Below, one piece after another: positions 1,895 through 54,077 of a DNA stretch of 64,000 bases. The first letter of the stretch is position 1, and the number at the start of each line of letters is the position of its first letter. The position numbers were made by a program, and so were the translations under genes. The stretch lies in NCBI GenBank assembly GCA_043741945.1, contig JAYTZT010000001.1:152559-216558 (forward strand). The letters run 5' to 3'. Source of the DNA: Candidatus Altimarinota bacterium (GTDB lineage: Bacteria; Patescibacteriota; Gracilibacteria; BD1-5; UBA2023). The notes under the pieces were generated by a model. That model had not been told where the DNA came from, did no database searches, and saw nothing but the letters and a program-made list of their open reading frames with translations.

Positions 1895-2230
1895 TTATTT
1901 TTTCTCGATGATTCTCAGAGACCGAGAAATGACAACAAATCCATATGCCCAGAGTACTGGGAGCCAAATAGGCATAATCCCAAAGAGGCTATTACGAATG
2001 AAAACCTCAACACCAGTCGAGATAAAAAAATACTCAAAAATCAGCATAGCAAAAAATCCTATAACCAATATCAGATATTCTCATCTATTATACTGCAAGA
2101 AGAAGCTCGTAAAAATTATCAGGAGATAGATACCGCAGAGAATCCAGTCATCCTGAATCAGAGGGATGAGTCCAATCATCAGAAGTATTGGAAGTGCTTG
2201 AATCAGGATTTTGTAGAATTTTTTGCACAT
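1895..2230 (-). CDS. small integral membrane protein (about 111 aa), function unknown
   Basis: ATG 2228-2230 to TAA 1895-1897 with one internal TGA. The translation (MCKKFYKILIQALPILLMIGLIPL...IMPIWLPVLWAYGFVVISRSL) is strongly hydrophobic. It is on the same strand as the surrounding dcd/dut/folA/thyA string. Confidence 0.5.
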
Positions 2231-2390
2231 TTTTATTCTTTAAAGAAATATATGAATGTAGCTTTTGTCATTCCGTAGCGGAGCATAGGAATCGCTTTTT
2301 CCTGCAATTACGAAAAAGAAATAGTAAAAATCTCATAAGATGATTTTGAAAGAGATCCTTACAGGATGACAAAAAATACCAATACGATTC

Positions 2391-2933
2391 TTATTTTTTG
2401 ATATAACCTACCATATTATTTTCTCCTTCTCCATATCTACCGACTTTTTTGTAGTCTTGCTCTGGAGGAGAAGTCATTTCAGCAAAGAGAAGTTGCGCAA
2501 TATCCATACCTGGACGAAGAATGATAGGTACAGAGTTCATATTGGCGAGCTCGAAAGTGATATTGAGATAGTGACCTGGATTGATGAGTCATGCAGTATT
2601 ATGGACAATGAGGCCGATACGTGCCAGAGATGACTTACCCGAAAGTTGTATAAGATATTTTTCAGAACCGAACTTCTCTATACTCGTACCCAGGACCGTC
2701 ACTCCAGGGCGCAAAATCAATCCTTGTTCAGCTGTGACGATGAGTTCTTCGTACTCTGGCAGAATATGATTGATGGGATCAATATTTATTACAGAATAAT
2801 CTTTTACAACGAGGAATCTATTACCAAGACGGATATCGTAGCTTGCAGGCTGAAGACGACTCACATCAAAATCCGAAATAGAAATAGTACCAGAATCTAT
2901 AGAAAGACGGATATCACGGTCGGAGAGATACAT
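2391..2933 (-). CDS. dcd: dCTP deaminase
   Basis: MYLSDRDIRLSI...SYDIRLG...VHNTA, then TGA 2589-2591 as Gly gives GLINPGHYLNITFELAN..RPGMDIAQLLF. Ends at TAA 2391-2393. Start taken at the internal ATG 2931-2933, which matches the usual dCTP deaminase N-terminus. Confidence 0.9.
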
Positions 2934-3093
2934 ACAATAGAATTTATTTTGCTTAGTATATCTATTTTTTTTGAATTTCAACTCCTCGAAGATAGTATTG
3001 TATAATCTTCTTATAATCCCATCATTCATTTGCCCAATAGGTAGCACCGATTCCTGATATTCCAACACCATGACCAGCTCTCACATGTCATTC

Positions 3094-5217
3094 TCATCCA
3101 GGGTCAACTACTGATTGTAGATATGGTATGTCCATACAGTTTTTGGATCCATTGTTATTACAATATTCGAGTGCAGAGAGTGTACGTCCATCTGAGGACG
3201 AGTGATACCATGGCTTGACGAGTTTATCCGCATAGGTAATCACTTGTGCACGAGTCGCATCAACCATATTTGCTACTATTGGAGATCTCAGCTCATAGGA
3301 ATATCCTAGATATTTCTGGAAAGCATCAGGATCGTCAGAGCCATCATAGAGATTCGTATTGAATTTTCGATTCAGCGGATTCATATACCACATCGCATAT
3401 GATCGAGCTGAGACAACTATAGTTTTTATCTTTTCTGCAAGATCACTATTCGAAACTTCTCCCATTCCTTTGAGATACCACTCAATGGGGAGATCATTTA
3501 TGAGAGTCATATTTCAGTTCTCATTGATGACTCGGATAGTATCACGAAACAGATTATCATTGTACTTACCTGTTTTATCCCAATTAGGGATACGATTCCA
3601 TGAATCAACTCGTACTACACTATGTGAAAGTCGAAATACTGATCCAGTATAACTAATTTCTCATACTTTTAATGTGAGTTGGTTATTTCATACTATTCCT
3701 ATTTCATATTTTTGAGATAATGAAGATAGTATTTTTTTTCCATCCATAGTCAATTTTCCTATTTTACCATCGACAGTTGATAGAATTGCACTTTGAGGAT
3801 CAAGGTAGGAGAGCTTCACTCTGAATTTTGGACCTATATATCGTACAGTTGGTATCGAGATTGGTAGTCGAATAGAGGTTGTTATAGGATTCACACTCGT
3901 CATAGCATTCACACTCGTTACAAACACTGACTTTGGAGGAGCAATGACTTTTAGGGTCATATTCATTATTCGATCGGATAAAGGAGACTCGATAACTCAC
4001 TGTATAGGATTGTATACAGGCATATATGGACGATCGAGACGACTTATCCAGTCTGATATATATTGATGAATATCTGATCCTGGACAATCAGTATGACCTA
4101 TATCCTTGTGCCCTACAAGTGACTTAGTTATTATAGTTTCGAGAATAGTACATCATGCAGTTATACATTTTCTAGCTCATTGTTTGCTATCTGATAGAGT
4201 TATACCGTATTTGCTGGCCATCATCGTGATTGACTTCTCGATTCATGCAATTTGATCACGATTGAGATGATCACGACTATAGTCACCGAGTACAGATATA
4301 CCGACAGTTCCCATATTGTTATAAGCGGCATGCGAAGCAACAACATAGTCTCATCCAGCACGACCCTCATATATGAGTCCTCTCTGGCCTATGAGATAGT
4401 TATACCCTATATCACCCCACTCTCGAGAGAGCGTATGGTATGCATATATACCACGGATCATCTCCGCATCTGTCTTGGTGCTATCCATACTCTGAGCTGT
4501 ATGATGTATGACAATCCTGGAGACCTGCTTTACTTTTTGAACTGGCCAAACAAGTGGATGTCAGTTCTCAGTACGAATCAGTGCAGTTGTCTCAGTAGTA
4601 GGTCAGCCATTCTTCATGAGAAAATCTACCCGTTCATCTTCCATCAGAATCGCATCAAGCTGAACCTGAGTCTTTGGATTACGGACATACCAGAGATATC
4701 CTGGATATTTACTCTTCCAATATGGGCTATCTGAATATCGCATGGTCTCATCTGCTCCCCACTCTGCTCTGGAGATAATACCATCTTCTGCAATTGCGCC
4801 AGGGAATCCAATAGTAAAACGAGATCCAGCTACCCGAGTATCCATAGTGTATACAGTGATATCACTTGGATCTATCAGTGCTCATCCCAAAATACGGAAT
4901 GAGGCAATAGCTGTGGCATCAGCAAGTACTGGGAAAGAGAACAATTCAGAATTAGTTTCTCCATCATGATCGATACATTCTTGTTTTTTTTCTGTAGAAA
5001 AATCCCACTCAACACAGAGTTCCTCATCACCTTCTTTGGAGTTTTTGAGTCCTATATACCATATATTTTTAGCATTTTTGGCAGCAATATGATAAGTACC
5101 ATCAGAAGATAGATAGACAGGAGAACGTTCGACAGTCATATCATATGTAGGCACAGAATGTAGAAAAATCCCAAAAAAAGTCAAAAAAATAACGGAAATG
5201 AAAGAAAAATAACGCAT
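3094..5217 (-). CDS. secreted peptidoglycan hydrolase: N-acetylmuramoyl-L-alanine amidase (Amidase_2/PGRP-like) fused to a SpoIID/LytB domain
   Basis: Four same-frame ORF fragments (4882..5217, 4603..4845, 3688..3966, 3094..3510) join through about a dozen TGA codons with no TAA/TAG. N-terminal signal peptide MRYFSFISVIFLTFFGIFL. Amidase_2 motifs IVIHHTA, WGDIGYNYLIGQRGLIYEGRAGG, GHKDIGHTDCPG. SpoIID motifs LPIEWYLKGMGEV, KPWYHSSSDGRT. Confidence 0.85.
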
Positions 5218-52853: not shown

Positions 52854-54077
52854 ATGAAATCCTTTCCTTGGCAGATACTTCTCGACTGGTATAGACAGCA
52901 CTGACGACACGACTTCCCCTGGAGGCAGTATGATTTGGGTGATATGAGTGGATACCGAGTATGGCTGGCAGAAATCCTCCTCCAGCAAACACAGGCTGAT
53001 AGAGTAGTCCCTTTTTATGAGAAAATACTAAGTAGATATCCTACCATAAAACAACTTGCACGAGCTGATTATGATGAGTTTTTTCCGTATTATCAGTGAC
53101 TCGGTTACTATTCTCGAGCAAGGAATCTACTCAAAACCGCAAAGACCATACATGAAGAGTACGCTAGTATATTTCCAAGAGATAAACAATCACTCAAAAA
53201 ACTTCCTGGAATTGGCGAGTATACTGCTCGAGCTATTCTTGCATTCGGCTATTGAGATCCACTCCTCGCTTGGGATACGAATCTAGAAACAATATTCTCG
53301 AGATATTATAAATGAGCAAAAAATATCAAACTCAGTGAAGATGAGAAAAGTGAAATAGAGAAGGATTTTCAAAGTTTTGTATCTAAAAAGTCTCAAGAAC
53401 AATGAATGGGGGTTCGGAGGGGAAGCACTGTTTCAGCGGTGATGAAATCAGAAAAAAAGAAGAGCGAATCGAATACTGAGCGAGTGCCCCTTTCCCGCTG
53501 AGCGGGATTGGAAATACCCTTGGGATATTGATTCCCCACCGATGCTTTTGATACTTTTGGCAGCAAAAGTATGGAGAATGGTGTCTGAGAAAATGTAATA
53601 GTCCAAAATATCAATAATGGACTCATGGATTGGGCTCGCACCTCTGAGCCAAAAACTGCTAATCTATTGGATCCAGGTAACTATATATTCACAGGTAGTC
53701 AGTTCTATACATCACGATGAACCATTGAAGTGATAGAGAAAAAAACATCTATTTCCTTCCCTACACCTGACGCTCAGGTATTGGTGATACTCCATCAGGA
53801 TCACCGTGTGTACTATTCTCTCGACTCAGAGTCATATTCACTATTTACCCTACCTCCTTCAGAGCACCGAGATACTCGCAAATATGTACAAGACTATTTC
53901 CGTAGCAAATATGGACTCGAACTCTCAGTACGACCAATCCATAAAAAATGGCTCTCCATAGATGGAAAGCCATATATCACCATGAATGCTCAGATACAAG
54001 CTGGAGATGCATCAGTATTCAAACAATACAGCAAAAAAGATATGAAGAATGTTACAGATCACCTGTATTCTTTATAG
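52854..54077 (+). CDS. mutY: A/G-specific adenine DNA glycosylase (MutY-like) with an internal insertion and no Fe-S cluster cysteines
   Basis: YRVWLAEILLQQTQADRVVPFY, HhH-GPD LKKLPGIGEYTARAILAFGYG, catalytic Asp context AWDTNLETIF, and a C-terminal Nudix-like domain in ORF 53730..54077. The frame 53280..53732 was translated codon by codon and contains only TGA. Confidence 0.8.
53403..53590 (+). other. GC-rich, hairpin-dense in-frame insertion inside mutY
   Basis: Locally much more GC-rich than its surroundings. Hairpins: TCCCGC-TGA-GCGGGA (53493..53507), ATACTTTTG-GCAG-CAAAAGTAT (53551..53572), and GGGG..GCACT / AGTGCCCC (53419..53429 with 53483..53490). Four TGA codons in about 62 codons. 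Confidence 0.6.

Follow-up and report, generated by a model that had tools for sequence, protein, structure and literature searches.

The window analysed here is a stretch of 64,000 nt (64 kb) from contig JAYTZT010000001.1 of a Candidatus Altimarinota bacterium. It includes a gene for a MutY-like adenine glycosylase, mutY, that is enlarged by an in-frame insert of about 65 codons, and this insert, which is probably a copy of a dispersed and structured repeat, is the subject of this report. The gene and the parts of the inserted element are listed in Table 1.

The reading frame of mutY is open only with TGA as a sense codon. There are nine in-frame TGA and no in-frame TAA or TAG, and several of the TGA coincide with conserved Gly residues of MutY (WYRQH-G-RHDFPWR and YYQ-G-LGYYSRARN). 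Throughout the window, 14 ORFs (open reading frames) of at least 200 aa (3,771 aa in total) are found with code 11 versus 55 (20,996 aa) with code 25. TGA is also the commonest of the standard stop trinucleotides (1,529, versus 923 TAA and 861 TAG), an excess that is consistent with its being read as an amino acid. In this window, TGA is a sense codon (Gly, code 25). A scan of the 64 kb for tRNA and tmRNA genes found none, and hence no tRNA-Gly(UCA) in the window. The closest relatives are in Candidatus Gracilibacteria assemblies.

The mutY product has a Pfam HhH-GPD domain at aa 39-174, plus HHH, and matches solved MutY structures in the PDB over aa 8-158 (E ~4e-33). The translation, read through the TGA codons, contains no cysteine in 407 aa. 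The iron-sulfur (Fe-S) loop that the earlier note had placed beyond the helix following the insert is therefore absent, and the site lies between two helices of the would-be cluster domain. Gracilibacteria and Peribacteria relatives of this MutY are likewise Cys-free.

Table 1. Coordinates in the window of the mutY-like gene and of the parts of the element inserted in it
Feature	Position	Strand	Remarks
Cluster-less (Cys-free) mutY-like adenine glycosylase gene	52854-54077	+	407 aa in code 25, stop codon TAG; supported by Pfam, PDB and homologues
Whole element, family A, 'GGGGGTTCG' subfamily	53386-53597	+	Ends uncertain by ~15 nt
Long-range helix, 5′ strand (TCGGAGGGGAA)	53414-53424	+	Pairs with 53532-53542; register ambiguous by 1 nt here
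Conserved box 1 (TTTCAGCGGTGATGAAA; family consensus TYTGAGCGGGATGAA)	53431-53447	+	82-88 % identity among mutY orthologues
Variable middle	53448-53475	+	26-63 % identity, the neutral level in distant pairs
Conserved box 2 (CTGAGCGAGT; family consensus nAGCGAGT)	53476-53485	+	Family alignment; identity among mutY orthologues
Nested 42-nt secondary insertion with two small hairpins, including TCCCGC-TGA-GCGGGA	53486-53527	+	Private to the window/P0001 lineage; missing from L001 and L002
Long-range helix, 3′ strand (TTCCCCACCGA)	53532-53542	+	Covariation
Pseudoknot triplet TGC	53543-53545	+	Pairs with loop GCA at 53560-53562
3′ module: TTTTG linker and 9-bp hairpin ATACTTTTG-GCAG-CAAAAGTAT	53546-53572	+	91-100 % identity among mutY orthologues
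Conserved 3′ tail (GGAGAATGGTGTCTGAGAAAAT)	53573-53594	+	95-100 % identity in the window, L001 and L002

On re-reading, the coordinates and sequences that the earlier note had given for 53403-53590 were correct, as was its count of four TGA (at 53403, 53499, 53529 and 53586) and no TAA or TAG in the frame of the insert. A MutY protein search recovered many relatives of 331-451 aa, aligned as A1, and these bear out the extra codons: eight close homologues of 331-339 aa (P0014-P0019, P0022 and P0023) have nothing at this site and run in the protein alignment as DFxxFIsk-(0-3 aa)-nnxxRxINNALMDWAR, for example …DFQKFISN-NNTIRDINNALMDWAR. An insert of the same kind is present in P0001-P0004 and, in a diverged form, in P0010, P0011, P0013, P0020, P0021, P0030, P0039, P0067 and P0070. 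The claim that the insert is GC-rich holds in direction, as its GC content is 0.479 versus 0.39 for both the gene and the window, within the top 2.8 % of 188-nt windows, but the excess is modest. The 188-nt insert folds at -62 kcal/mol (z = -3.0), none of 200 shuffles being as stable, and the region is the fourth most stable 120-nt segment in the window. In the AlphaFold model of P0001, which is the closest relative with the same insert and not the window protein itself, the mean predicted local distance difference test score (pLDDT) is 82, while the insert scores 32-40 and has no secondary structure and the flanking helices exceed 90; the insert peptide is thus predicted to be a disordered loop.

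Other sequences are also found at this site. Inserts unrelated to the one described here occupy it in P0005, P0006, P0012, P0025, P0026, P0028, P0029, P0056 and P0058 (A1 columns 255-375). They include type B (…DEMSQKQEVRGRKIFSKG…WEINFSDKEIRSFSGIS), type C (…HCEERSNPE…) and type D (…SPLRKRDVTEWQGDL…IPPTPFIKGE), which look like translations of other repeat families. Two further sites in MutY are variable or take insertions, namely the N-terminal loop after PWRxY and the C-terminal domain after …YYS.

The fold was tested on 35 unique copies of the element (alignment A3); the model of the element has 133 positions. The fold consists of an 11-bp long-range helix, two boxes between its arms, a 9-bp 3′ hairpin and a 3-bp pairing of the hairpin loop with the triplet that precedes the UUUUG linker. 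RNAalifold recovers both helices, and 10 of the 11 pairs of the long helix show double compensatory changes, as where GGGGAA/TTCCCC in the window corresponds to GGGGAG/CTCCCC in L001. With the full structure, 96 % of cells are paired versus 43-54 % when the partners are slid, and there are 122 double-change cells versus 8-24 in the slid controls, values that none of 500 shuffles reached. The three pairs of the loop-triplet pseudoknot all co-vary and are 94 % paired in the 35 copies; at 100 unique pattern sites the pseudoknot is fully paired in 53, versus 3 for a shifted control. On the displayed strand, which is the mRNA sense in mutY, G-U pairs outnumber A-C mismatches (~35 vs 12), so that the displayed strand is the one under selection. 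The invariant U4 and A4 tracts are arranged as in an H-type pseudoknot, and the U-rich loop might form major-groove triples.

In the window copy, the nhmmer envelope spans 53393-53604 and the covariance-model match 53400-53581 (88 bits, E 5e-17). Its 5′ and 3′ extensions are also found in the non-orthologous copies L004a, L174 and L202, and the conserved 3′ tail in L005, L004a and L202, the last of which is not in mutY. In one subfamily the variable middle contains small hairpins. The window copy is ~210 nt, longer than the ~130-nt family unit because of the nested 42-nt mini-module; a related module, a hairpin followed by ATTKGAAATACCCTTGGGRTA, is present in opposite orientation in the L202 copy. 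Of the pairings proposed earlier, the perfect stems TCCCGC/GCGGGA (53493-53507) and ATACTTTTG/CAAAAGTAT (53551-53572) are present. The GCACT/AGTGC stem uses the nested piece private to this lineage and is not a family-wide feature. The proposed pseudoknot CGGTG/CACCG is 47 % paired over the 35 family members, not above shuffled or slid controls, and its CACCG is part of the 3′ arm of the long-range helix.

No second copy was found in the 64-kb window, either by blastn or by an exhaustive scan with the covariance model, which gave one match, the window copy. Nor does the window hold a dispersed repeat family: its sole sizeable repeat, a 107-nt direct repeat at 40552-40658 and 41666-41772 (82 % identical, 1,114 nt apart), is unrelated to the insert. 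Further copies, whose absence the earlier note would have counted as refutation, lie elsewhere, at more than 100 loci, an outcome that favours the reading as an element. A degenerate pattern of the 3′ hairpin was found in one viral contig and at least 120 metagenome stretches, and among the stretches listed a whole-element profile gave 124 matches in 108 loci, 11 near mutY and 113 not; 51 of the 124 were near full length. Phage and plasmid collections contained no match to the element.

The contexts of the copies are mixed. Some have no spanning ORF and others lie inside long sense-strand ORFs, in frame in the genes for an AAA+ ATPase (L110) and an endonuclease III (nth, L186), and also in that for a protein of unknown function (L174); recJ-like exonuclease fragments that carry the element in frame were found at the protein level. 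The protein-level census, made with a profile of the element translation, gave 12 short fragments, as gene calls in code 11 probably break at TGA. For the same apparent reason, TGA being taken as a stop, close relatives ranked low in a profile search of genome contigs with the MutY alignment; apart from L005, this search turned up mostly ordinary MutYs. The nth genes of L186 and L125 are ~85-90 % identical in DNA, and the intragenic copy is present in L186 only. All nine copies inside ORFs for which orientation was scored are in the sense direction, and intergenic copies show no bias relative to the neighbouring genes (9 vs 15 and 8 vs 14). Four loci considered as stop-containing intragenic copies (L099, L153, L205 and L144) are actually intergenic, beside nth.

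At the DNA level the element was found in mutY of L001, L002 and L005, and twice in mutY of L004, at two different sites. L002 and L005 share a hairpin insertion (22 nt) distinct from the 42-nt piece of the window. The alignment of the window with L001 and L002 is 93-97 % identical over 53537-53596, third codon positions included, compared to 50-80 % in the rest of the gene. Four-fold sites flanking the element are 43-58 % identical in this trio and 38-43 % against L004 and L005, while the arms, boxes, hairpin and tail are 91-94 % identical in the trio and 75-83 % against L004 and L005 (binomial p 1e-12 to 1e-28). Taken together, arms, boxes and hairpin in the mutY orthologues are 83-94 % identical, versus 38-58 % for the flanking four-fold sites. 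L004b and L005 agree at 45 of 45 positions in the 3′ arm, pseudoknot and hairpin, yet their MutY proteins are 59 % identical. The 5′ half of the element is read in three frames across lineages (GMGVRG…, ENGGSRGRHC… and VGLGERNCLS…) and the 3′ hairpin as …FG(T/S)… in all mutY lineages. In the insert it is the nucleotides, and not the peptide, that are conserved.

These comparisons also bear on whether the insert is an ordinary protein loop, specific to this lineage, that compensates for the loss of the [4Fe-4S] cluster domain. Cluster-less MutY and MutYX clades are known to remodel the cluster region (PMC12631127, 2025), and the insert lies in that region of a Cys-free MutY. However, close homologues that are equally Cys-free have no insert, the frames differ between lineages over conserved DNA, synonymous sites in the insert show higher conservation than those elsewhere in the gene, the same DNA is found in other genes and between genes, and the insert is predicted to be disordered. 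A loop of this kind is almost certainly not the explanation. The opinion of the earlier note that this is not ordinary protein sequence is supported by the frame differences over conserved DNA and by the dispersed family.

Alternatively, the unit that spreads might be a peptide module, with …SFGTFxxKSTE… a linear motif (partner-binding, for example) recruited to repair proteins. The mutY, nth, recJ and AAA+ ATPase copies do read the hairpin in one frame, as (S/T)FGTFxxKST(E), and three of these hosts are repair enzymes. This is nevertheless very unlikely, given that a large number of copies lie between genes or are read in different frames (FWYFCxQKY, LLVLLAxKV), that conservation reaches synonymous sites and tracks base pairing, and that the peptide is predicted to be disordered and has no Pfam match.

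The inserts in the mutY copies are 153, 174 and 195 nt long and the nested pieces 21 and 42 nt, all multiples of three. Of the genic copies, 10 of 10 are open in the sense direction when read in code 25, compared to 0 of 10 in code 11, and TAA and TAG together number 1.2 per 100 nt in genic copies versus 2.7 in intergenic ones. Frame-keeping indels and stop depletion fit translation and not excision, and from the indels, the lack of in-frame TAA and TAG and the predicted disorder of the peptide the insert is most likely translated and not spliced. The conserved boxes of the element contain TGA (four are in frame here), and read-through therefore depends on TGA being sense.

The opposite possibility, also raised in the earlier note, is an RNA-level intervening sequence (a self-splicing intron, a self-cleaving or ligating ribozyme or a bypass element) whose removal would leave a mature MutY without the insert. 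The stable fold and a three-way-junction layout like that of small ribozymes speak for it, and candidate-phyla-radiation (CPR) bacteria are known for introns in rRNA genes, with group I matches in the 23S gene of L160. However, none of the intron or ribozyme models gave a match, even at E<=10, the length falls short of a group I or group II intron, and many copies are intergenic. The mutY copies all keep the frame and contain no in-frame TAA or TAG, and the depletion of stops in genic copies would be unselected if the sequence were removed. This explanation is highly improbable, and we have set it aside.

Searches of Rfam found no family for the window copy (E<=10), the canonical copies (E<=1), the GC-rich tandem units described below or the loci of families B-D. 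Several specific identities were considered and rejected. Box C/D small RNA matches (eukaryotic and archaeal snoRNA) at 53435-53503 are sub-threshold (SNORD49, 22 bits, E 0.014; gathering score 37), and the GUGAUGA … CUGA arrangement that causes them, resembling the C box RUGAUGA and D box CUGA that such RNAs have beside a terminal stem (k-turn), is peculiar to the mutY subfamily, the family consensus being GGGATGAA and TAGCGAG. A type II hammerhead has a similar three-way-junction layout, but the conserved box here is nRnCGAGU and not CUGANGA. For the small self-cleaving ribozymes in general (hammerhead, twister, pistol, hatchet and hepatitis delta virus-like), there is no Rfam match and the core is not present. 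Group I introns are at least ~250 nt and group II introns comprise domains I-VI, so ~130 nt is too short for either; the element, at 130-210 nt, has no match to a catalytic core. An intein needs ~130 aa at minimum, an N-terminal Cys or Ser and a C-terminal His-Asn with Cys, Ser or Thr next to it, and the insert is ~65 aa, starts G-M-G, lies in a protein that has no Cys and is followed by N-V-I. Translational bypass, as in T4 gene 60 or the mitochondrial byps, involves matched take-off and landing codons, a stop after take-off and a gap that need be neither open nor in frame; here every mutY copy keeps an open frame through the insert, and the indels are multiples of three. The element is not a miniature inverted-repeat transposable element (MITE), as terminal inverted repeats are lacking, the paired arms are internal and co-vary, and the 3′ hairpin and tail lie outside the arms. 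Repetitive extragenic palindromic (REP) sequences and bacterial interspersed mosaic elements (BIMEs) are extragenic palindromes of 20-40 nt that go with a RAYT transposase gene, and this element is ~130 nt, composite and occurs inside genes.

We therefore favour, as the probable explanation, that the insert is a copy of a non-autonomous structured repeat of a ~130-nt family dispersed in Gracilibacteria-type genomes with TGA as Gly, which lands in frame and is read through as a disordered loop of MutY. This agrees best with the suggestion in the earlier note of a mobile palindromic element, inserted in frame and resembling those of Rickettsia, given the dispersed copies, the in-frame hosts and the presence and absence of the copy in nth. 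Copies would insert at the DNA level regardless of orientation, those that break a frame would be lost to purifying selection, and those in tolerant surface loops with an open frame would persist. The window copy, placed between two MutY helices, would be transcribed and translated with the gene, adding ~65 disordered residues. The arms, boxes and hairpin may be kept in situ by a function of the RNA or of single-stranded DNA at the locus, or by homogenization from other copies in the genome.

A number of observations weigh against this explanation. Only one copy is present in the 64 kb, and mobility is deduced from the distribution of copies and not observed. Neither a transposase nor terminal inverted repeats nor a duplication of the target site came to light, although transposases were not sought systematically; no consistent flanking direct repeat was found in the 35 aligned copies. 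In the filled and empty nth genes (L186 and L125) the junctions are untidy, and that the insert is translated is itself deduced and not observed. Retention of the fold in situ in the mutY copies would not be expected of a purely selfish relic, and the covariation of the pseudoknot together with the G-U excess points to single-strand, RNA-like selection, unlike that on ordinary MITEs or REPs.

Alternatively, the element might chiefly be a structured RNA with a function of its own (regulatory, protein-binding, catalytic or guide-like) that is tolerated in coding DNA, with an RNA-level role at mutY, for example in mRNA stability or in the translation of repair genes. This overlaps with the dispersed repeat favoured above. 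It would fit the covariation, pseudoknot included, the ~35 G-U versus 12 A-C on the sense strand, the constraint on arms, boxes and hairpin in situ while the middle drifts, the sense orientation of all copies inside genes, the 3′ module that ends several unrelated scaffolds in distant organisms, and the copies at HhH-GPD repair genes (upstream of nth, in nth and in mutY) and in recJ. However, the sense orientation within ORFs is also explained by stop-codon filtering, intergenic copies are unbiased in orientation with respect to the genes beside them, ~95 % of the copies lie away from repair genes, and there is neither an Rfam family nor agreement with the hammerhead core. A primarily functional RNA is possible but doubtful. 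As for the proposal in the earlier note of an embedded structured RNA, only one part stands: the fold is real, co-varying and constrained in situ.

The copies at repair genes were considered separately. HhH-GPD genes were present in 7 of 121 pattern-selected loci (786 kb), with the module inside the gene or at most 64 nt away except in L190, where a canonical mutY from an unrelated GC-rich organism lies ~600 nt from a family-C array. Together with the recJ hosts, this suggests a link between the element and repair genes, although relaxed selection on such genes, local hopping or chance in a small sample could give the same picture. Copies were seen ~50 nt upstream of an nth and in its orientation, within nth, 60 nt past a convergent nth, in mutY at two sites and in recJ-like genes; the repair-gene copies are L125:7367-7461, L186:255-378 and 760-877, L099:1897-2029, L144:818-941, L190:3052-3594 and P0121/P0122/P0125.

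The 26-nt 3′ module also ends scaffolds other than that of family A, here called families B, C and D. Family B is of low GC content and has the form GGGTGAAATCACCCGA…AAAATAGCGCGACTTTCAC…GCTCGCGAGT followed by the module (L143, L160, L178, L201, L089, L142, L136, L137, L150 and other loci). It shares a TAGCG(C)GA(C/G)TTT box with family A, apparently has its own pseudoknot, and has no Rfam match. The L160 contig (1-4276) also carries a 23S-5S rRNA operon of CPR type, where two weak matches to group I introns lie inside the 23S gene or behind it. GC-rich tandem units of 415-515 nt, each ending in the module GGC-TTTTGGTACTTTTG-GCCC-CAAAAGTAC, make up families C and D. Such units, on which Rfam is silent, are found in L114:3300-4850(-), L190, L141, L203, L103 and the viral contig L085:5880-6324. 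Genes beside the GC-rich arrays were searched for a partner enzyme and none was recurrent. In the viral contig, which has two family-C units, a reverse transcriptase-like ORF (2291-3298; region 2198-3298) is preceded by an above-threshold match to Rfam RT-17 (45.5 bits). The distance to the units is 2.6 kb, and a link is unproven.

Modules are nested in or follow family-A copies as well. Many have a further palindromic module 15-25 nt downstream (GGATTCC…GGAATGAC; CCTGGATTCC-(6-20 nt)-GGAATGAC), which was seen in the flanks of L119, L126, L132, L134, L154, L185, L087, L091 and L177 and translates to …FVPQNDG/…RNDG…, strings also present in the mutY of L005. A 20-nt mini-hairpin (CCTGCCTGACGGCAGGCAGG) is nested in the upstream copy of L186 (~330-350) and missing from the orthologous copy of L125, and a similar one is found in L091.

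It is conceivable, though we think it improbable, that families A-D are a superfamily of structured RNAs ending in one pseudoknotted and possibly triple-helical 3′ module, which would be the handle of some machinery (a reverse transcriptase, a nuclease or an RNA-binding protein), and that family A is maintained by selection in or beside mutY, nth and recJ as a functional RNA translated within coding sequence. If true, the superfamily would span code-25 CPR bacteria, GC-rich organisms and a viral contig.

If the insert is a dispersed repeat that is read through, it would be a second, independent case, in a different phylum, of the phenomenon known from Rickettsia, in which folded selfish or semi-selfish repeats lie in coding genes, and reassignment of TGA to sense would open genes to elements that would otherwise truncate them. 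For annotation, CPR proteins are lengthened and broken up by such inserts, which give rise to spurious 'lineage-specific domains'. Taken as a whole, the unusually good covariation, the constraint in situ, the 3′ module common to unrelated scaffolds and the grouping of copies at HhH-GPD repair genes mark out a new structural family, of RNA or DNA, that is amenable to modelling and searching. Within the literature that could be searched, which excludes most subscription journals, no account of an element like this one in Gracilibacteria or CPR was found, and to that extent the family is previously undescribed.

Among known systems, the host protein is comparable to the cluster-less MutY and MutYX proteins in that all four Cys ligands are lacking. 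Cluster-less MutYs are given in PMC12631127 for Lactobacillales and one anaerobic clade only, CPR and Gracilibacteria being unmentioned. The host gene, for which Pfam shows the HhH-GPD domain only, thus extends these proteins to a clade not named there.

The element itself shares features with several groups. Like MITEs and repeats of the REP/BIME type (Correia, ERIC, REP-RAYT), it is short, non-coding, multi-copy, hairpin-forming, modular and nested, with second modules in or after many copies. However, the arms of those repeats are conserved as protein-binding sites and the arms here co-vary. The 3′ module, xyz-UUUUG-GUACUUUUG-z′y′x′n-CAAAAGUAC, has the strand order of H-type pseudoknot RNAs, and its U-rich first loop would face an A-U stem. 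A module found on otherwise unrelated scaffolds is also reminiscent of non-autonomous elements that have their 3′ recognition tail in common with a partner enzyme. It differs from these small structured RNAs and tail-sharing elements in that neither an Rfam family nor a partner enzyme was found here.

The closest parallel is with the Rickettsia palindromic elements (RPEs), which are reportedly ~100-150 nt, stably folded and dispersed in a reduced genome, both between genes and in frame in unrelated genes. RPEs are translated as tolerated surface segments and have no known transposase. The element described here is likewise short and stably folded (133 positions, covariation, -62 kcal/mol) and likewise dispersed, between genes and in frame in unrelated genes (>100 loci; mutY, nth, recJ-like and AAA+ hosts). 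An RPE proper would be found in Rickettsiales and have sequence homology to RPE-1 to RPE-8; the present element, set apart by phylum and architecture, is not classed as one. It belongs to a different phylum with a different genetic code, and its read-through needs TGA to be Gly. Its fold is no simple palindrome and combines a long-range helix, conserved boxes and a pseudoknotted 3′ hairpin outside the helix, with strong covariation and constraint in situ.

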